A stretch of 64,000 nt of DNA, taken from Dictyostelium discoideum (Eukaryota). The notes below the pieces were generated by a model. The model searched no databases. It worked only from the letters and a program-made list of their open reading frames with translations, and was not told the origin of the DNA. The position numbers and the translations under genes are program-made. The stretch covers positions 3,104,001-3,168,000 of the forward strand of contig CM000151.3 in NCBI GenBank assembly GCA_000004695.1. The letters run 5' to 3'. Below are positions 2,137 through 56,613 of this stretch, piece by piece (positions within the stretch are counted from its first letter, which is position 1; each line of letters begins with the position of its first letter).

Positions 2137-3717
2137 ATGGGTGGATTAAAATTAATAAAAGAAAATCATTTAACAAATTATGTTGATGAGAATTTTATGC
2201 CATGGGATACATTGAAACCATCGATTCTTCAACAATATACCTCTGATGATTCAAATCCAATTCAAGTTTCTTTTATGTCAACTGGTACAAGTGGTAAAAT
2301 TAAAATTCCAATCAATCGTTTAAATAAGATTTTAGAAGAATTGGAACAAGATAAAGAAGATTCAAAATCAACACAATTCTCTCAACCTGATATCATTATG
2401 GATTTAGAAACTTTACATTCTGAATTATTAAAAGCTTGGGCTGCTGAAGAAAGAGTTAGATCTTTAAAAATTGCAATTCAAGTATGTACTAATTTTCAAA
2501 ACTAAAAAATTAAAAGTAAAATTTATTAATATATCTCTTTTTTTTTTTTTTTTAGACAGCAAAATTATTATCAGATACATCATTAATTAAATTTTATCCA
2601 AGTAAATTTGTAATTGCAACAGAGATATTAGATACATTTGGTAATTTAGTATATGATAGAATTAAAAAGAGATTACAATCATCAAAAGAAAGTAAAAATC
2701 ATGAAATATTACTAAAGGAACAAGCAAAGGAAACTTGTAGAAATTGGTTCTATAAGATTGCATCGATTAGAGAGTTATTACCAAGATTGTTTGTAGAGAT
2801 TTCAATTTTAAAATGTTATGAATTCATTCAAGGTGATGTAAACACTGAACCAAAACAAGTGATTAATCGTATCAGTGAAATGATTAGAGGTATTGGTAAT
2901 CCATTGGTTGCAAATTACATTAGAGCTTATTTGACAAGAAGATCATTCGATCTTTGTCCAGAGTATAAGAAATTCGTCATTCAATTATTGAAAGATTTCG
3001 TTTTCACTCAAAAATCATACGAGAAATCAAAATATTTAGAGAATACCTTGTCAATGTATAGAATTACTCTCACTGATTATATGGGACTATATTCACCATC
3101 ATTGGAATGGTTACTACAATGTTTGGCTCATAAAGCAACACCTGAAACTTTGGAAGAGGTTTTAGAACTTTTCAGAGAATCAAAGAATTCTCTCCTCTTA
3201 AATCATATCATTAGTTCTTTCCCACCAGAATACATTTGTAGTAATTCAACAATGTTTTCAAATTTCATAAAGGATGCCGATACTCTCTCCTATCCAAAAT
3301 ATCAACTCTATAGTACTTTTGGTGTTAATTTGGTTTTAGGTCAACCTCCAAAGAATCAAATCTTATCAATTTTAAATGATGTTTGGAAAGTTGTTACAAA
3401 CTTTGAAAATATTAAAGATTATATTTCTGTTGCTGAAGTTTTTATTGAATATGTTTTAACTCATTGTTCTGTAAGTTGTTTTTTAAATTAAAAAAAAAAA
3501 AAAAAATTAAAAAAAATAGTTTTATTAATAGTTTTTTTTTTTTTTTATCTAATAGGAAAAAGAAACAGATGTTTTCTTAAAAGATATTCTTAGACATATT
3601 ATACCAGATAAAGGTTATGAAACAATTCAATCACATCTTCAATCAATTGTTTTAAAAATTTTTACACATATCTCTGATTTTGGTAAATTAGTTTCGTTTG
3701 TAAGTTTTGAACTATAT

Positions 3718-3766
<49 letters not shown>

Positions 3767-5224
3767 TTTAATTATTATTGATTAAATTAAAAAATAATTA
3801 TTGATTTATTATTTATTTTATTTTAAATAATATTATTTAGACAAACTTTTTACCATTATTAGATTTATTTAATGGTGAATCACAAAAACAAATTAGTAGA
3901 TCAACATTAGAAGCATTATCAACATCAAAAGTTATGACATCAGATCCAATATTGATAAATACATTCCTTACCTATGGTAAAGCATTACATGATTCATTGA
4001 ATAGTCTTAGTTTCCAAGATGAAGTTAGACAAGTCACTCAATTGGTTGTAAATTGTATCAATAAGATTGATTTCGGAAGAGATGTTGAAAAACAGTTAAA
4101 CTTTTATGTAGAGTGTAGACAAACCTTTATCAATTTCGATGGTGTAAAGAATAGATTGGTCTATGGTGTTTGTGAAATTTGTGAGAAAACTTTAAATTTG
4201 GTAAAAGGTAAACATACTCCAAAGACTACCTCTTTTATTCGTGCTTGTGTTGCCTATTGCTTCATTACAATTCCATCAATTGATGATATCTTTTTAAAGA
4301 TGAATCTTTATTTAGTCTCTTCATCTGTGGCTTTACAAAATCAAGCACTCTCTCAAGCCGATGCTTTATTAAAGGCTGCCATCACTTTTATTCAAGAAAT
4401 CCCTCCAATCTTGGAGTTTAAACAAGTTAAATCAACTGAAGATTGGACAATCTCTTATGTCTCTGATTTTATCTCACTTTTAGTTGTAACTCCTGGTCAT
4501 CCTGAAAGTGGTCCTTTCTATTTAGTAAAGGCTCTTTATAAAGTCATTAAAGAATATCAATGGGAATCAAGTTCAACTGCTAAATCAAAATTATTTATTC
4601 AATTATTATTACTTTGTTCTTCTTGGTAAGTTATTAAAAATTATTATTATTAAATTATAGTGAAAAAAATTTTTTTAATTATTAATTTTATTATTATATA
4701 TTTATTTTTTTTTTTAAAAAAAAAAAGGGCACAAACTTCATTACCATATCATATTGAAAAAGTTGAATCAAATGATCAATTATTTACAGAAGATCCAGAG
4801 TTTAATACAGAATTAACAGAATTTTATAATTCATTAATTAAAGAAATTTTATATGATTTAAATCTTTTGAAAGATGAACCAGATAATTTAGTAAGGTATT
4901 TTATTTTTTTTTTTTTTTTCATTTTTTATTTATTTATGTTATTTAATATTAACATTTATTAAAAAAAAAAAAAAAAATATATTATAGACACAGAAAAAAG
5001 TTGGTATCATTTGTATTGATTTAATAAATGCATTATTAAATGTTGGTGAATTAAATAGTAAGACAGCATCATTAATTTTCAATTTATATAATATGGCAAA
5101 GAAAATTATACCATCAACCTGTTTCAATGAAATTACATATTTAAAGAATACTCTTGCTTTTATTGGAACTCTTGAATCTAAAATGGGTCAGGATATTTTT
5201 AATAAACTTTCACAACAACAATAA
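2137..5224 (+). CDS. Six-exon gene encoding a VPS35-family alpha-solenoid protein (retromer VPS35-like, possibly a VPS35L/retriever-type subunit). Exons 2137..2481, 2556..3470, 3556..3699, 3841..4625, 4728..4890, 4988..5224.
   Basis: Consecutive ORF-track segments join in frame through GTATGT/GTAAGT...TAG introns of 74-130 nt. Phases are consistent: exon 4 ends TG and exon 5 supplies G, giving W. The motif ELLPRLFVEISILKCY resembles the VPS35 PRLYL motif. This is a long helical-repeat protein. The first in-frame ATG is at 2137, but the frame is open back to 1822, so the 5' end may lie upstream. Confidence 0.55.
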
Positions 5225-5991
5225 GAAATAATAAAAAAAAAAAAAAAAAAAAAAAAAAACTTTTAATAAAATATAATAAAAAAAGATTTTAAATTGTATT
5301 ACCCTAAATATGAATAAAATATTATTCCAAAAGTGATTATTTTAAATATTAATAGACCAACTTAAAAAAAAAAAAAAAAAAAAATATAAAAAACAATTTG
5401 TAATTAAAGTTTTTTTTTTTTTATTTTTTTATTTTTTTAAGTTTATAGTTTAAAATAACAAATCAAATTTTATTTTAATACAAATCTTACCTTAATTTCA
5501 GCCAGTTTATCTTTTTGAGATATTTTAAAGTTTTTGGTTTGGGAAGAAACTTTTTATTTTCCAAAATGTAACTATTTTTTTTTTTTTTAGGATTTAAAAT
5601 AATTTGGTTTTTGTGTTGAAAAAAAAAAAAAAAAAAAAAAAAATTATTAAAATTTAAGTTTTTTTTTCTTAAAAAATTAAGTTGTGGGTTAAAAAAACAA
5701 TTAAAATATTGTTATTTTTTAGGTATTTTTATATTAATTATGTTTAAAAATACCCCCTAAGGGACATAGTACCAGTTTGAAGTTTTAAGTTATTACATTT
5801 TAAGAAACCAACTATTTATTAATTAATTTTTTTAATTTTTTTTTTAATTTTTTTTTTTTTTTTATAAATAATTAAAAAGTTTTAAAAAAAAAAAAAAAAA
5901 AAAATATTATCAAAATATTCAAAAATAATAATTAACAATTAAAAAACTGGATTTTATAATACACATATATCACTAGAAATTTTTAAATATA

Positions 5992-15856: not shown

Positions 15857-33068
<17,212 letters not shown>

Positions 33069-40361: not shown

Positions 40362-40553
40362 ATGAATATCTTGATTGTAATTATTATTATTATAATAACA
40401 ATAAGTTTTTCCCTTGGTAATGTGAATGAATGTTATGCAAATTGCTTCAAAAAGAATACTAGATACTGTGGAAAGGATCAATTTCTTTGTGATGTAGTTG
40501 TTGGTAAATGCCAAGAAAGTTGTAATATTGAATTTGGTATTGAACAAAAATAA
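40362..40553 (+). CDS. 63-aa secreted Cys6 peptide (paralog 1), intronless.
   Basis: Signal peptide MNILIVIIIIIITISFSLG, then a mature peptide with the spacing C-x3-C-x7-C-x6-C-x6-C-x3-C (NECYANCFKKNTRYCGKDQFLCDVVVGKCQESCNIEFGIEQK). Confidence 0.6.
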   Translation: MNILIVIIIIIITISFSLGNVNECYANCFKKNTRYCGKDQFLCDVVVGKCQESCNIEFGIEQK

Positions 40554-41107: not shown

Positions 41108-41400
41108 ATGGTAAAATAAAATTTTTTTTAACAATTTTTTTATTTATTTATACATATTTTTTATTAACAATAAAATATTTTTTTTTTAAAAAACAAATTT
41201 TAATCTTTTAGAAATTAACTCTCTTTTTTTGTATTTTTTTAGTGGTTTATTTAATGATAATATCATCAAATGGAATAAATGGTGATTGTTATAGTGATTG
41301 TGTTGATGATAATAGAGAATTTTGTAAAACTGAATGGTCAAAATGCGTTGTACTAATGCAAAAATGTAGAGATAATTGTGATGTACAATTAGAAAATTAG
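41108..41400 (+). CDS. 63-aa secreted Cys6 peptide (paralog 2). Exon 1 is the ATG alone (41108..41110). Exon 2 is 41212..41400.
   Basis: ATG|GTAAAAT...CTTTTAG|AAATTAACT gives MKLTLFFCIFLVVYLMIISSNGINGDCYSDCVDDNREFCKTEWSKCVVLMQKCRDNCDVQLEN. Its cysteine spacing is identical to that of paralog 1. Confidence 0.55.
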
Positions 41401-41927: not shown

Positions 41928-43088
41928 TTATTTATTAAAAAAAGAAGGTGTAACTATATTAATATTATTACAATTTGAACAAGATAATTGAATTTCATGA
42001 TTTGAAGTTAATGTATTTAAAATTGGTATCATTGGTTTTGAATAATATAAACCTGTACATTTCTTTTGAGAACAATAAAACTTTGAAATCCAATTATCCA
42101 TTGAATCAATTGAATTTGAATCACCATTACATCTTGGACAAATACAATCAAAGTAATAACCATACTTTAATTCATCTTTTCTATCTTGTATTGGTTGATC
42201 TAATTCAATATAAGATATTGTCAATTGGTCACCCTTTTTAATTGGATATAATGATTTAAATGTCATATTACTACCATCTCTAACATCTGTACAATTTGGT
42301 ATACAAGAATGATTAAAATAACTACTACTTGGTGATACTGCAACACCAATACACTTATCATTCTTTGTCCAAATTCCAAATTGATTACATCTAGTTTTAT
42401 GTATAATTGATCTACTTTTTTCATTAATTTTCCTAATCATTTCAATTTTATCATCATTATTAATTATTGATTTTGTTGTTGTTGACCCTAATAATACTAA
42501 ATTAAACAATTCACTTATAAATTCAACGATTGAATCAATTCTTTCTTTTGCTGCTGGATTTGATTCTTCTGTAACTTGATTTTCTACTAAATCAAAAACA
42601 TCATCTAATGTATTTGTTAATTGTTCATTATCATTATTATTATTATTGTTGTTATTTAATTGTTGTTCAATAAATTTATTATTTAATAAAATATCTTGAT
42701 AATATCTTGATAACAAACCAACGATCATTCTAATTTCTGTAAATGTTTCAATATCAAAATTTGGATAAACTTTTAATTTTGGTGATTTTAATTTTTTATA
42801 AAATTTACATTCATAATGTTGATGTTTATTAATATTTTCATTTTTACATTGTTCATTACAATACCAAATTTCATTACATTGATTACATTTTAATGATAAT
42901 TTAATAACTGATGGTAATTGTTTAATACAATTAAAACATGATGTTGTTTTTAAAGTTTCTGATGTAACTGCAAAATATGATTTACATTTTAATAAATCTT
43001 CTCCAATTTGAATATCACGAGTTGCTATTAAATAACGACCTTCATTCTCTGAACTTTTTAATTCTAATCCATTAAAAGATTTAAACAT
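41928..43088 (-). CDS. SET and MYND domain (SMYD-type) lysine methyltransferase, paralog 1, intronless, 386 aa.
   Basis: MYND zinc finger CFNCIKQL...CNQCNEIWYCNEQCKNENINKHQHYEC. SET core FGIWTKNDKCIGVAVSPSSSYFNHSCIPNC...ELKYGYYFDCICPRC (post-SET Cys cluster). Confidence 0.8.
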   Translation of the reverse strand: MFKSFNGLELKSSENEGRYLIATRDIQIGEDLLKCKSYFAVTSETLKTTSCFNCIKQLPSVIKLSLKCNQCNEIWYCNEQCKNENINKHQHYECKFYKKLKSPKLKVYPNFDIETFTEIRMIVGLLSRYYQDILLNNKFIEQQLNNNNNNNNDNEQLTNTLDDVFDLVENQVTEESNPAAKERIDSIVEFISELFNLVLLGSTTTKSIINNDDKIEMIRKINEKSRSIIHKTRCNQFGIWTKNDKCIGVAVSPSSSYFNHSCIPNCTDVRDGSNMTFKSLYPIKKGDQLTISYIELDQPIQDRKDELKYGYYFDCICPRCNGDSNSIDSMDNWISKFYCSQKKCTGLYYSKPMIPILNTLTSNHEIQLSCSNCNNINIVTPSFFNK

Positions 43089-43333
43089 TTAATAATTAAT
43101 TTATTAATTTTTTAATTTTTTTTTTTTTCGATCAGTAAAAACCACAAAACTGTGTTTTAGAAAAAAAAAAATAAAAATAAAAAAAAATAAAAATAAAAAA
43201 AAATAAAAATAAAAAAAAAAAAAAAATGTGAAAATAAAAATAAAAATGTGAAAAAAAAAGTGGCATGAAATCGGGATTTAAATTTTATGTGAGAAAATAT
43301 GTTTTTTTATTTTTTATTTTTTTTTTTTTTTAT

Positions 43334-43872
43334 TTAATAATTTGGTTTATTTAAATAAAAATTTGAATTAACAATTAATTGATCATTACAAGTTGAACAT
43401 GATAATTGAATTTCATGATTATCAATGTTGGTTAATGATTGTAGTGATAATTTTAATTTTGAATAATATAAACCTGTACATTTCTTTTGATGGCAATAAA
43501 ATTTTGAAATCCAATTATCTAATGAATCCTCTAATTTACCAGTTGGATCAATATCTGTTGAATTACATCTTGGACATTGACAATGAAAGTAGTAACCAAA
43601 TTTCAAATAATCTCTACGTCTTTTAGTTGATTTATCTAATGCCAAATAAGAGATATTAATTTGGTCACCTTTTTTAATTGGAAATAATGATTTAAATGTC
43701 ATATCACTACCATCTCTAACCGATTCACAATTTGGTATACATGAATGATTAAAATAACTACTACTTGGTGATACTGCCATACCAATACATTTATCATTCT
43801 TTGTCCAAATTCCAAATTGATTACATCTAACTTTTTGAATTAATGGTCTAATTAATTTAATTAATTCTTCAA

Positions 43873-43962
<90 letters not shown>

Positions 43963-44575
43963 CATTACTATTATTATTTATTGTTAATTTTAATATATTT
44001 ATAATATATTCAATAATATTATCAATATATTCTTTTGCTACACTATTTGTTTCTTCATTTATATCATTTTCTACTAAATCTAATACACCATCCAATGTAT
44101 CTTTTATAAAATCTTCTTCATCATCTTGTTGATTATTTATTATTATTGATGAATTGAATTTATTATTTAATAATTTATCTTGATAATATCTTGAGAGTAA
44201 ACCAAGTATTATTCTGATTTCAGAGTATGAATCGAAATCGAGTTTTGAATTTTGAATTAATTTTGGTGATTTTATATTGTTGAAAAATGCACATTCATAA
44301 TGTTGATGTTTTGCTTGATTATCTTGTTTACATTTTTCACTACAATACCAAACTTCATTACATCCAAAACATCTTGGTACTTGTTGAGGTGATGGTGATT
44401 TAATTAACTTTATACAATTGTAACAACTATTCTTTTTAAAATCTTCACATGTAACTGCAAAATATGATTTACATTTTAATATACTCTCTCCAATGTCAAT
44501 ATCTCTATTTGCTATAATATACCTTCCCTCTAACTCTGAATTCGATAATTTTAATCCATCAAAAGATTTAAACAT
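43334..44575 (-). CDS. SMYD-type SET+MYND methyltransferase, paralog 2, intronless, 413 aa. It contains a poly-Asn insertion.
   Basis: It is about 70% identical to paralog 1 over alignable regions (MFKSFDGLKLSNSELEGRYIIANRDIDIGESILKCKSYFAVT...NHSCIPNC...YLKFGYYFHCQCPRC). The (ATT)n run at 43869-43960 encodes a 40-residue poly-N loop that is absent from paralog 1. Confidence 0.8.
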
Positions 44576-46383: not shown

Positions 46384-46521
46384 TTGGTTGAATATTTAGA
46401 TAAAAAGAAACAATATATTGAAGGAAAAGCATCAACAACACCTTTATCAACTTCACCAACATTAAATTCAAAATCATCATTTAATAATAATAATAATAAT
46501 AATAATAACAATAATAATAAT

Positions 46522-46590
<69 letters not shown>

Positions 46591-47010
46591 TTTTCAGAAG
46601 ATGATGAATATTATAGTGATGATAATCAAAATAATCAAAATAATCAAAATAATAATAATTGTGAAGATTCAGAATTAAATATTGAAGAATATTCAAATAT
46701 ATTTAAAAAATTAAAACAAGAGAATAGTTTTAATGAAATTATAAATTTTACAGAGAGGGAAATTTTGGTATTATGTGAAGTTTGTAAACATTATTTTAGT
46801 GATTTCAAAAAGAATAAATTCAATAATTTCGATAAATTATTATTATATTTAGCATTTAGTAAAGCAGGATCAAGCACAACACACATTAGTAAAATGTTTA
46901 ACGTTACTCAAGTTACAATTAGTCGGGTTGTACAAAAGATACGTATTGTAATTGATCAACTTTCAAAAAGAGATTTACCATTTGATATATTTAGACCATC
47001 AGTTAATGGT

Positions 47011-47052
<42 letters not shown>

Positions 47053-47061
47053 TCAAATAAT

Positions 47062-47103
<42 letters not shown>

Positions 47104-48507
47104 CAAAATAATTTTAAAATTCAAAAGAATCCATATCATATTGGTTTAATAGTTGATTGTATCACTATTAAAACTACAATAGCAGATTCAAAGAAAAAGG
47201 AATACTTTGATCCAATTAATAACATATATGGCATTAAATTTATGGTTGCAGTTCAATTCAGTTCACCACATTATTCAATTTTTGTTTCTGCACCTTATCT
47301 TGGTTCAACACCTGATCTAACCATATTTAATCAACAAAAACATAATCTATTAAACTATCTTCAAAAACAAGATACACCTTCAGAAATTGATCAAACTGGT
47401 AAATTTAAATCATGGGCAATTTTAACTTTATTCGATCCTCAAACAGGTTCCTCATTACCTTATTCAAATTATTATAAAAATGTTAATGGTATGGTTCAAA
47501 TAGTTAATCAAAATCAAAATCAAAATAATCAAAATAATCAAAATAATCAAAATAGTCAAAATAATCAAAATAATAACAATCAAAGTAATTATTGTAATAA
47601 TAATAGTTTACCATCTAGTGCAACAACTACACCACCATTAAATTCACAAAATTATAATAATAGTAATAGTAGTAGTAGTAGTAATATACAGGAATATACA
47701 ATGACGACGACCATGATGACGGCAACGACGGCCACAATGACAACTACTACAACTACAAATACAAATTCAAAGTGTATTGATGAAATGAGAATAATAAATA
47801 TAAATGATAATTTAAAAGAATTTGAATCACATAGGATGACAATTGATAAATATTTTGGTAGATTATATGGGTTATGGGGAATTACTGGTAATTATCGGTT
47901 GGATCAACGTTTCATTGAAATCGATTTTAAAAATTTACAATGGTTAACAAATGTTCATATTCAAAAGAAAGATTTAGATAATGACGATTTAACTTTTTTT
48001 TATCAATTTAAAAAGAATTTATTTGAATCTGATAAAAGAATTACAAAAAGTAGAAAAAAAGATAAAAAAGTAACAAGTCCACAACAAAGAAGACAATCAA
48101 ATAGAAATCATGATATTAATAATAATAATAATAATAATAATAAAAATAATATTAATATTAATATCAATAATAATAATAACAATAATAATAGCAATAATAA
48201 TAATAGCAATAATAATAATAATAGCAATAATAATAGTAATAATAATAATAATAATGGAAATAGTGATGGAAATAATAATAGTGATAACAGTAAATATAAT
48301 ATTAATAATATTATTAATAAAAACAACATCAATAATAATAATAATAATAACATATCTTCATCTACAACCACCTCAACTTCAACTACATTTCAAAATCATT
48401 CATTTGATGATGAAGAGTATGAAGATGAATCATATGATACCTCTGAATATGACGATGGTGAATTAATTTTTGATGGAGATGATGAAGATAATAATTTTAA
48501 TAATAAT

Positions 48508-48541
<34 letters not shown>

Positions 48542-48612
48542 TAGAAACAAATAGAAATAAAAATGATGATCCTCGTGAAGATACTGGTCCATTTAAAAAA
48601 AGAAAATTTTAG
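46384..48612 (+). CDS. Harbinger/PIF-type DDE transposase-derived protein: N-terminal HTH plus a DDE_Tnp_4-like nuclease core, heavily interspersed with poly-Asn. The true start lies upstream; the frame is open from 46282 with no ATG.
   Basis: HTH-like REILVLCEVCKHYF...LLLYLAFSKAGSSTTHISKMFNVTQVTISRVVQKIRIV. Core blocks are HIGLIVDCITIKT (first Asp), YFDPINNIYGIKFMVAVQ...APYLGSTPDLTIF (second Asp) and HRMTIDKYFGRLYGLWGI (the Harbinger R..VE..FG.LK..W block, with Asp in place of Glu). Confidence 0.6.
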
Positions 48613-55374: not shown

Positions 55375-56613
55375 ATGAAAATTTTAAAATCATTAATTAT
55401 TGCATTTTCAATTGTTGGTGCAGTATTATCAAGTAATCAATGTAATGAAGATTATGAATGTGGTGTTGGATATCCATATGCAGCATGTAATGGTGGTTTA
55501 AATGTTTATCCAGGTATTAGTATGGATGGGAATGATAATTTAATTATTGCAGGTAAATTTAATAGTTCACAAGGTGGTCCATTTGGTACACCAAAAATGT
55601 TTAATATTCCAACTTCAGGTAATGGAAGTAATGAAATTTCTCAAAGAATTAATATCAATGGTGAAATTGAAAGTGGTGCAGGATCATTCAAACTTTATTC
55701 ATTCTATGATTATTTACCCCAATCAAATTATTATTATGTATTAATGAATCAAGGTGGATCAGCACCAATTTTCTCACTTATAGATGCAAATAATGGTGGT
55801 GATAAAGTTAAATATGTTTTCAATATTTTCAATACACCATTCGTTCCAATTTTTGATGATATTGAAAAATCAATGATCTATGGTGCTTATGGTATTTATA
55901 AATTAAATAAATTACCAACACAAAGAAGTGATGCTCAAGATGCAACATTAATTTATCAATCACAAATTGTTAATGGTTTAGCAAAAGATGGTAATGATTT
56001 ATATATGTCAACTTATGATGGTAAATTCTTAAAAGGTAAAGCTGATTGTTCAAATTGTACAAAAGATCAATTGATTGAAATTGGTAGTGATACTGATGCA
56101 AGTCATTTAACTGATTTCTTAGTCGAGGGTGATTTAATTGTATTCTCTCATTCAAATGGTATAACTGCTTATTCAAAATCTGCTAACTCTAATCAAGCCA
56201 TTAAATTAATCACTGGTGAAAATGTAATTTCAATGGTTTCAAAGGGTGGTGTCATTTATTATACAACTAAAGATGGTATTGTTAAATCAATTGGTATTGA
56301 TGGTAAAAATGGTAAAACTATTTATACACCAACTTCCAATCATCAATGTCAAGCTGCTGTTGGTTTCCAATCAATTGATGGTGTTTGTAAAGGTAAAACC
56401 TTATGGTATAATGGTATTCCAACTTGTACTCCATTAGGTGAAGGTGGTATCCCTGCTCAATGTTTCACAAGTGTTGATTGTGGTCCAACTCCATATTTCA
56501 CTTGTAATGGTACTTGTGGATGTGTTAATAATTTCAGTGGTTTAGATTGTACTCATTGTGATGGTAATGTTGAATGGTTAAATGGTATCCCATTATGTCA
56601 AATTCCACAATAA
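55375..56613 (+). CDS. Secreted protein (412 aa) with a C-terminal laminin-type EGF-like Cys module. Function unknown.
   Basis: Signal peptide MKILKSLIIAFSIVGAVLS. The C-terminal Cys pattern is CQAAVGFQSIDGVCKGK...CTPLGEGGIPAQCFTSVDCGPTPYFTCNGTCGCVNNFSGLDCTHCDGN. It is a complete ATG..TAA ORF. Confidence 0.6.
   Translation: MKILKSLIIAFSIVGAVLSSNQCNEDYECGVGYPYAACNGGLNVYPGISMDGNDNLIIAGKFNSSQGGPFGTPKMFNIPTSGNGSNEISQRININGEIESGAGSFKLYSFYDYLPQSNYYYVLMNQGGSAPIFSLIDANNGGDKVKYVFNIFNTPFVPIFDDIEKSMIYGAYGIYKLNKLPTQRSDAQDATLIYQSQIVNGLAKDGNDLYMSTYDGKFLKGKADCSNCTKDQLIEIGSDTDASHLTDFLVEGDLIVFSHSNGITAYSKSANSNQAIKLITGENVISMVSKGGVIYYTTKDGIVKSIGIDGKNGKTIYTPTSNHQCQAAVGFQSIDGVCKGKTLWYNGIPTCTPLGEGGIPAQCFTSVDCGPTPYFTCNGTCGCVNNFSGLDCTHCDGNVEWLNGIPLCQIPQ

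Follow-up and report, generated by a model that had tools for sequence, protein, structure and literature searches.

The window analysed here, a 64-kb stretch of Dictyostelium discoideum DNA (contig CM000151.3, 64,000 nucleotides), carries on its minus strand two adjacent genes of the SMYD class, whose SET domain is split by a MYND finger, and one of them contains a long run of asparagine codons. We refer to the open reading frame (ORF) at 41928-43088 as P1 and to the ORF at 43334-44575 as P2; all coordinates are those of the whole window. Our analysis makes it very probable that P1 and P2 are an old pair of functional SMYD genes produced by tandem duplication in situ, and that the poly-asparagine run of P2 is a slippage microsatellite located in a tolerant linker. 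According to this account, an already intronless gene would have been duplicated in situ and in tandem in an ancestor shared by D. discoideum, D. citrinum and D. firmibasis, most probably once the D. purpureum lineage had diverged, and both copies would have been kept since then under purifying selection. The (AAT)n tract would lengthen and shorten by replication slippage, the mechanism that we infer, and would be tolerated since it is placed in SET-I, the helical insert of the SET domain, where a predicted-disordered, length-variable linker joins the final two long helices.

A tandem pair of SMYD-class genes

An ORF scan of the window revealed P1 and P2 as two single uninterrupted ORFs arranged head-to-tail on the minus strand, 245 bp apart, with coordinates exactly as given in a first-pass annotation made from the sequence alone. 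The two proteins are 55% identical and collinear from end to end (BLASTP, E = 6e-150). An exact-sequence look-up identified P1 as D. discoideum AX4 DDB_G0273589 (XP_644411.1). The P1 protein carries two AX4 GenBank accessions, EAL70485.1 and EAL70844.1, in keeping with the large segment of AX4 chromosome 2 that is duplicated. A 413-residue single-exon gene identical to P2 is called directly upstream of P1 in the assembly GCA_054883475.1. Both genes are already annotated and are SMYD-family members of a model organism; a full-text search by gene identifier found no paper, within the library searched, that mentions DDB_G0273589, DDB_G0273591, DDB_G0273253 or DDB_G0273393.

Domain searches, alignments and a structural model agreed on the nature of the two proteins. 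The Pfam SET profile scored above its cut-off in both (44.9 bits for P1, 27.4 bits for P2), with matches covering residues 17-293 of P1 and 17-310 of P2 and with zf-MYND (residues 51-91) nested inside. Comparison with the PDB by phmmer returned SMYD2 (3e-21), SMYD3 (3e-18) and SMYD1 (3e-17), in two aligned blocks that correspond to residues 6-90 of SMYD2 for the N-terminal SET segment and the MYND finger, and to residues 176-269 for the core SET and post-SET regions. A family profile matched SMYD2 in the PDB with E = 1e-38. The AlphaFold2 (AF2) model of P2, with a predicted local distance difference test score (pLDDT) of 78 and a predicted template modelling score of 0.78, had SMYD2, SMYD3 and SMYD1 as its best Foldseek matches in the PDB (E of about 1e-17, template modelling score (TM-score) of about 0.52).

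The eight zinc ligands of the MYND finger (C4-C2HC) are invariant in a 14-sequence alignment, as are N276, H277, S278, C279, Y310, C332, C334 and C337 of P2. The phmmer alignment places C262, Y293 and C315/317/320 of P1 opposite C209, Y240 and C262/264/267 of SMYD2, Y240 being the catalytic tyrosine; the counterparts in P2 are C279, Y310 and C332/334/337. The post-SET zinc site of SMYD2 is formed by C209 together with C262/264/267 (PMC3125274). After the post-SET region, both proteins have a conserved module of four cysteines (Cys4), of the pattern WISKFYC-x4-C ... C-x2-C, that may bind zinc, and they end 49-76 residues past the post-SET cluster. The TPR-like C-terminal domain that SMYD1-4 possess was not found in this part, which in the model of P2 is made of short strands and helices around the four cysteines, without any helical repeat bundle. 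Lack of this domain does not exclude SMYD membership, because SMYD5 also lacks it. A distant homologue of 589 residues (P0010) has the same Cys4 module followed by a long helical tail, whereas the dictyostelid proteins stop right after the module.

Alignment and model together thus identify P1 and P2 as SMYD-class proteins, with a SET domain split by a MYND finger and a large helical SET-I, followed by the post-SET zinc cluster and, at the end, a short tail with the Cys4 module. This agrees with the first-pass annotation, which had described tandem SMYD paralogs that align from the N-terminus through MYND finger, SET core (NHSCIPNC) and post-SET cluster and whose NHSC and Y motifs appear intact; the MYND ligands, NHSCIPNC, the catalytic tyrosine and the post-SET CxCxxC are indeed intact in both copies. 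From the intact motifs and from the purifying selection described below, we infer that P1 and P2 would be active S-adenosylmethionine-dependent lysine methyltransferases.

A coding microsatellite inside SET-I of P2

The asparagine tract of P2 consists of 29 codons, every one of them AAT; on the plus strand it reads as (ATT)30 at 43873-43962. It belongs to a wider asparagine-rich linker (NNNSND followed by N29) in which 33 of the 35 residues are asparagine (residues 200-234, 43874-43978). An N40 tract encoded by (ATT)n at 43869-43960 had been reported earlier. The microsatellite-encoded, pure asparagine tract in one paralog is indeed present, but its length is N29 and the start at 43869 is a few bases off. 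The tract had also been placed between SET-I and the core SET region, which disagrees with both the AF2 model and the alignment to SMYD2. In the model of P2, SET-I begins with a long helix (114-135), followed by short helices with a first low-confidence loop (143-153). Another long helix spans residues 178-204, and after it comes the second low-confidence loop (residues 203-225, pLDDT <50), which contains the asparagine tract. A helix (221-252) then leads to the first core-SET strand at 253. Residue 253 of P2 corresponds to residue 183 of SMYD2, where the core SET starts. The tract is therefore internal to SET-I, where it separates the final two long helices, which correspond to alphaC and alphaD, and it ends 19 residues ahead of the first core-SET strand.

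Comparison of assemblies revealed extensive length variation. The P2 tract is N9 in GCA_054859385, N29 in the window and in GCA_054883475, N29SNNN in D. cf. discoideum and N56 in GCA_054859355, and is pure AAT in each of them. P1 has an asparagine tract as well, located in the first variable loop of SET-I, with alleles of 8, 10, 11 and 15 residues in D. discoideum assemblies and about 18 asparagines in P1 of D. firmibasis. In P1 of D. cf. discoideum (L009, gene 3001-4185), the second variable loop has grown to a Thr/Ile-rich run, TTTTTTITITTTK. Because this second loop is also expanded, both SET-I loops of both paralogs appear to be hot spots of repeat expansion.

The linker that holds the P2 tract is of low complexity and variable length in every dictyostelid orthologue aligned. 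D. citrinum and D. firmibasis have T/S-rich sequence there, P. violaceum has poly-Q, and the linker of C. fasciculata and A. subglobosum is rich in Q and K; only the asparagine content and the length of the loop are specific to D. discoideum. The earlier notion of a paralog that had acquired a 40-residue loop is thus not borne out, since a variable low-complexity linker is ancestral in all dictyostelid orthologues and the tract itself ranges over N9, N29 and N56 among isolates. The underlying observation of a microsatellite-encoded poly-asparagine tract inside an enzyme holds. A pure codon, in-frame length polymorphism between isolates and location in a non-conserved segment, by which a coding microsatellite is recognised, were all found.

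Such tracts are common in this genome. According to reviews, trinucleotide repeats that vary in length, mostly poly-N and poly-Q, abound in the coding sequences of D. discoideum, and slippage is frequent even there (PMC9234386, PMC7466956). In the 64-kb window we counted 11 pure runs of AAT type with 10 or more units; N runs of at least 10 occur in 5 of its 22 long ORFs. The poly-asparagine run of P2 is an ordinary D. discoideum coding microsatellite, and its length would be near-neutral because the loop is presumably solvent-exposed.

We also considered that the tract might be functional and under selection, either as a prion-like or condensate element or as a length "tuning knob" acting through the alphaC-alphaD hairpin of SET-I. 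The tract is always read as asparagine and stays pure AAT across 9 to 56 units, poly-N and poly-Q are reported to be over-represented in regulatory proteins of D. discoideum (PMC9234386), and alphaC and alphaD of SET-I contribute to substrate recognition in SMYD2 (PMC3125274). However, codon purity is a product of recent slippage rather than evidence of selection, the length range among isolates is six-fold, T/S-rich or Q-rich sequence replaces the tract in sister species, and comparable tracts are present in the 5 long ORFs of the window mentioned above. Moreover, simple-sequence repeats reportedly vary as much in coding as in non-coding DNA (PMC9234386). We consider a selected function of the tract unlikely. 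It is improbable that the change in linker length from N9 to N56 alters substrate access or drives length-dependent self-association, which would make P2 a tunable SMYD paralog functionally diverged from P1.

Both copies are constrained

The pairwise dN/dS (ratio of non-synonymous to synonymous substitution rates) proposed in the first-pass annotation was calculated by maximum likelihood (ML) with the codon model GY94 and F3x4 frequencies. Between P1 and P2 within each of three species, dS was 2.0-2.35, that is, saturated, and dN/dS was 0.10-0.115. Between orthologues of each copy, dS was 0.11-0.99 and dN/dS 0.03-0.105. These ratios place both copies under purifying selection. Paralog dN/dS values of 0.5-0.7 obtained with NG86 could have been taken for relaxed selection; they are an artefact of the extreme codon bias of these genes (7-9% G+C at third codon positions), and the ML value is about 0.1.

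A decaying or non-functional copy would most plausibly be P2, which bears the poly-asparagine tract and evolves faster. Its amino-acid changes have accumulated about twice as fast as those of P1 (dN of 0.086-0.104 for P2 and 0.044-0.052 for P1 between D. discoideum and D. firmibasis), and it scores 27 bits against Pfam SET, versus 45 for P1. This possibility is very improbable, as the P2 reading frame is intact in D. citrinum, D. firmibasis and each of the five D. discoideum assemblies, the dN/dS of its orthologues is low, every change in tract length is in frame, and all zinc ligands, NHSC and the catalytic tyrosine are invariant. Substituted SET catalytic residues, named in the first-pass annotation as a sign of a pseudogene, were found in neither copy: NHSC and the tyrosine are intact in both.

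An old duplication of an intronless gene

The head-to-tail pair, P2 followed by P1, is present with the same flanking genes in D. citrinum, in D. firmibasis and in four other D. discoideum or D. cf. discoideum assemblies. The flanking genes encode an importin-alpha, a protein of 824-932 residues without Pfam match, a Sybindin-domain protein and a giant protein of more than 5,500 residues. A tree was computed by neighbour joining from 322 alignment columns free of gaps; P. violaceum, C. fasciculata and A. subglobosum served as outgroups, and bootstrap values were obtained by bipartition counting. P1 sequences formed one clade and P2 sequences another, each with 100% bootstrap, and P1 and P2 grouped together with 80% bootstrap, leaving the one D. 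purpureum gene outside. Judged from the tree, from the sharing of the pair by D. citrinum and D. firmibasis, and from the saturated dS, the duplication is old, contrary to the recent origin first suggested for it. The comparison of gene order that had been recommended as a check also contradicts a recent origin, the pair being conserved in D. citrinum and D. firmibasis; D. purpureum has a single gene with one shared neighbour.

This shared neighbour is a D. purpureum gene of 407 residues, homologous to the window ORF 55375-56613. Because it is common to D. purpureum and the window, the pair is still in its ancestral neighbourhood. A Rad51-family gene adjoins the single SMYD gene in D. purpureum (L001 3345-4555) and in P. 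violaceum (L006 1814-2866); no Rad51 homologue was detectable within the 64-kb D. discoideum window. Because this neighbour is absent from the window and only the 407-residue one is common, the neighbourhood has been partly rearranged and microsynteny is partial. Adjacency, same orientation, orthologous pairs in relatives and a kept neighbourhood, the characteristics of a tandem duplicate, were all observed. The adjacent copies in the same orientation and the conserved neighbourhood point to tandem duplication in situ.

The single-copy genes of other species inform on introns. P. violaceum has an intronless orthologue of 1353 nt, corresponding to 450 residues and a stop codon, and in D. purpureum the gene forms a single continuous ORF of 457 codons. 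For the latter, DICPUDRAFT_33308, an in-frame intron of 171 nt has been annotated (L001, GL871058.1, 1996-2166), with a GC content of 35%, compared to 29% for the rest of the ORF and 9-16% for flanking non-coding DNA. Translated, this segment gives an acidic peptide that falls in the first of the variable SET-I loops. Judging from its composition, the gene model has probably excised coding sequence in error, in which case the true protein would have 457 residues. In C. fasciculata (L007, GL883008.1, gene 4001-5428), a genuine GTATGT...ACAG intron of about 81-84 nt splits the post-SET motif CxC|xxC. This intron is in frame, stop-free by chance, and absent from P. violaceum and the group-4 species.

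Because the single-copy genes of P. violaceum and D. purpureum are already uninterrupted, the intronless state is older than the duplication, and it is therefore uninformative on the mode of duplication. Lack of introns had been noted as unusual for this genome; both genes are indeed single uninterrupted ORFs, but that this is unusual is not supported, the adjacent 824-residue gene being intronless as well. The roughly 13,000 genes of D. discoideum have roughly 1.3 introns each. The total number of introns is about 17,300 (PMC2483917).

To account for the intronless copies, it had been proposed that the duplication is recent and possibly arose when a spliced mRNA was retroposed; this deserves hardly any credence. 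In its favour, P1 and P2 are both single ORFs, reverse-transcriptase genes are numerous in D. discoideum and introns are often lost there through mRNA (PMC4683709), and the C. fasciculata post-SET intron indicates that the family lost (or gained) an intron at some point in its history. Against it, any intron loss predates the duplication, the copies are adjacent head-to-tail instead of dispersed, a neighbour gene is shared with D. purpureum, and the pair is common to three species, with saturated dS and fully supported paralog clades. An intron-containing parent and, usually, a new locus characterise a retrogene; here the outgroup genes are uninterrupted, the copies adjacent and the neighbourhood conserved. 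Recent duplication by retroposition is thus refuted.

Weighing the account

Several observations weigh against the account of an old, functional tandem pair with a slippage microsatellite. On the side of gene identity, the exact P2 protein had no match by exact look-up in the protein collection. The Pfam zf-MYND scores (21.2 bits for P1 and 20.9 bits for P2) are slightly below the gathering score of 22.7, and the last ligand spacing of the finger is H-x4-C in the pair, owing to an insertion of one residue before the last cysteine relative to SMYD2. The canonical MYND spacing at this position is H-x3-C. As to timing, the duplication most probably followed the D. purpureum split, a placement behind which the bootstrap is only 80%, and the D. 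purpureum gene sits 1.5 kb from a contig end, so that a second copy there is possible. As to function, the term "functional" has two grounds for both genes, the intact motifs and the low dN/dS. Near-neutrality of tract length is an assumption, and an effect of loop length is possible because alphaC and alphaD help SMYD2 to recognise its substrate.

The significance of the locus beyond housekeeping is small, as these are annotated genes resulting from an ordinary old tandem duplication, and coding microsatellites such as this tract number in the thousands in the D. discoideum genome. A modest use may come from the clean natural allelic series N9, N29 and N56, inside a catalytic-domain insert whose structural relatives are well understood. 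This series could serve as a test case for how Dictyostelium tolerates long asparagine tracts in folded proteins.

Other features of the window

The features of the two genes are collected in Table 1. The AT-rich spacer between them would hold the 3' end of P2 and, presumably, the promoter of P1. The matching spacer is 202 bp long in D. firmibasis and 408 bp in D. citrinum. The window has an overall G+C content of 21.8%, with 20-28% in coding islands and 6-16% in spacers.

Table 1. Features of the P1/P2 locus (positions in the 64-kb window; residues numbered in the respective protein)
Feature	Positions	Strand	Details
P1	41928..43088	-	Complete single-exon coding sequence, 386 residues; ORF scan
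P1 C-terminal Cys4 module	41967..42074	-	C339, C344, C370, C373; conserved Cys columns
P1 catalytic core	42129..42314	-	NHSC 259-262, Tyr293, post-SET C315/C317/C320; alignment
P1 Asn8 tract	42633..42656	-	Residues 145-152, first variable loop of SET-I; length-polymorphic
P1 MYND-type zinc finger	42807..42938	-	Residues 51-94; Pfam and alignment to SMYD2 6-90
AT-rich spacer	43089..43333	-	245 bp, P2 stop codon to P1 start codon; GC about 13-16%
P2	43334..44575	-	Complete single-exon coding sequence, 413 residues, upstream of P1 on the same strand; ORF scan
P2 C-terminal Cys4 module	43385..43495	-	C361, C366, C393, C396; conserved Cys columns
P2 catalytic core	43565..43750	-	NHSC 276-279, Tyr310 in ISYL, post-SET C332-x-C334-x2-C337; invariant columns
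P2 (AAT)29 coding microsatellite, Asn29	43874..43960	-	Residues 206-234; every codon AAT
P2 MYND-type zinc finger	44291..44425	-	Residues 51-95, ligands C51, C54, C69, C72, C78, C82, H90, C95; alignment and Pfam

Long pure-AAT poly-asparagine tracts are found in the window ORFs 148-1209, 15857-16936, 18558-33068 and 46384-48612. Examples in the window are an N30 tract in a response-regulator receiver-domain protein and an N55 tract in an ORF of 359 residues. A giant ORF of more than 4,800 residues has N32, N17 and N15 tracts together with Q17, and a neighbouring ORF of 742 residues has five runs of N10-N22.

Two small ORFs on the plus strand, 40362-40553 and 41242-41400, have a common six-cysteine pattern (CYANCFKKNTRYCGKDQFLCDVVVGKCQESC and CYSDCVDDNREFCKTEWSKCVVLMQKCRDNC, respectively). 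The first of them (40362-40553) starts with a hydrophobic stretch resembling a signal peptide. One spliced gene of 110 residues is called at this position in other D. discoideum assemblies (L004 9284-10303, L008 4692-5700). The two ORFs are probably two exons of an internally repeated, small secreted Cys-rich protein.

Comparison with known systems

The best sequence and fold matches of the pair in the PDB are the human N-lysine methyltransferases SMYD2, SMYD3 and SMYD1 (PDB 3S7B, 3MEK and 3N71). P1 and P2 share with them the split SET domain with inserted MYND finger, a large all-helical SET-I, the NHSC cofactor motif, the catalytic tyrosine and a post-SET zinc site, CxCxxC, that is tethered to the cysteine of NHSC. 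They differ in that identity is only about 18-20% and the TM-score about 0.5, and in that the pair has a small Cys4 module instead of the TPR-like C-terminal lobe. The SET-I region is about 155 residues long in the pair, compared to 84 in SMYD2, SMYD3 and SMYD1, owing to the two low-complexity loops, and the H-x4-C spacing at the end of the MYND finger is a further difference.

Human SMYD5 resembles the pair in lacking the TPR-like C-terminal domain, in its enlarged SET-I and in having a homopolymeric tract, of poly-Glu, with low predicted confidence (PMC9221539). In contrast to the tract of P2, that of SMYD5 is C-terminal and acidic, and SMYD5 has large structured MYND and SET insertions that are absent from the pair (PMC9221539). 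No specific sequence relationship of the pair to SMYD5 was detected, and no SMYD5 entry occurred among the phmmer and profile matches in the PDB.

Within D. discoideum, the SET+MYND class also includes DDB_G0277331, described as "SMYD3/ASHR1-like" and repressed by RblA (PMC3386910). It was the one Dictyostelium SMYD gene that we found to have published expression data (PMC3386910). It is a gene separate from P1 and P2, at a separate locus. We considered whether P1 or P2 could be the "SMYD3" gene of the RblA study and rejected this, as that gene is DDB_G0277331.

The closest parallel to the tract itself is provided by the coding trinucleotide microsatellites of D. discoideum, with which it shares the pure AAT repeat read as asparagine, location in a hydrophilic, presumably surface-exposed segment and length polymorphism among isolates (PMC9234386, PMC7466956). 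No difference from these repeats was apparent, and the P2 tract is a documented example of them inside a catalytic-domain insert.

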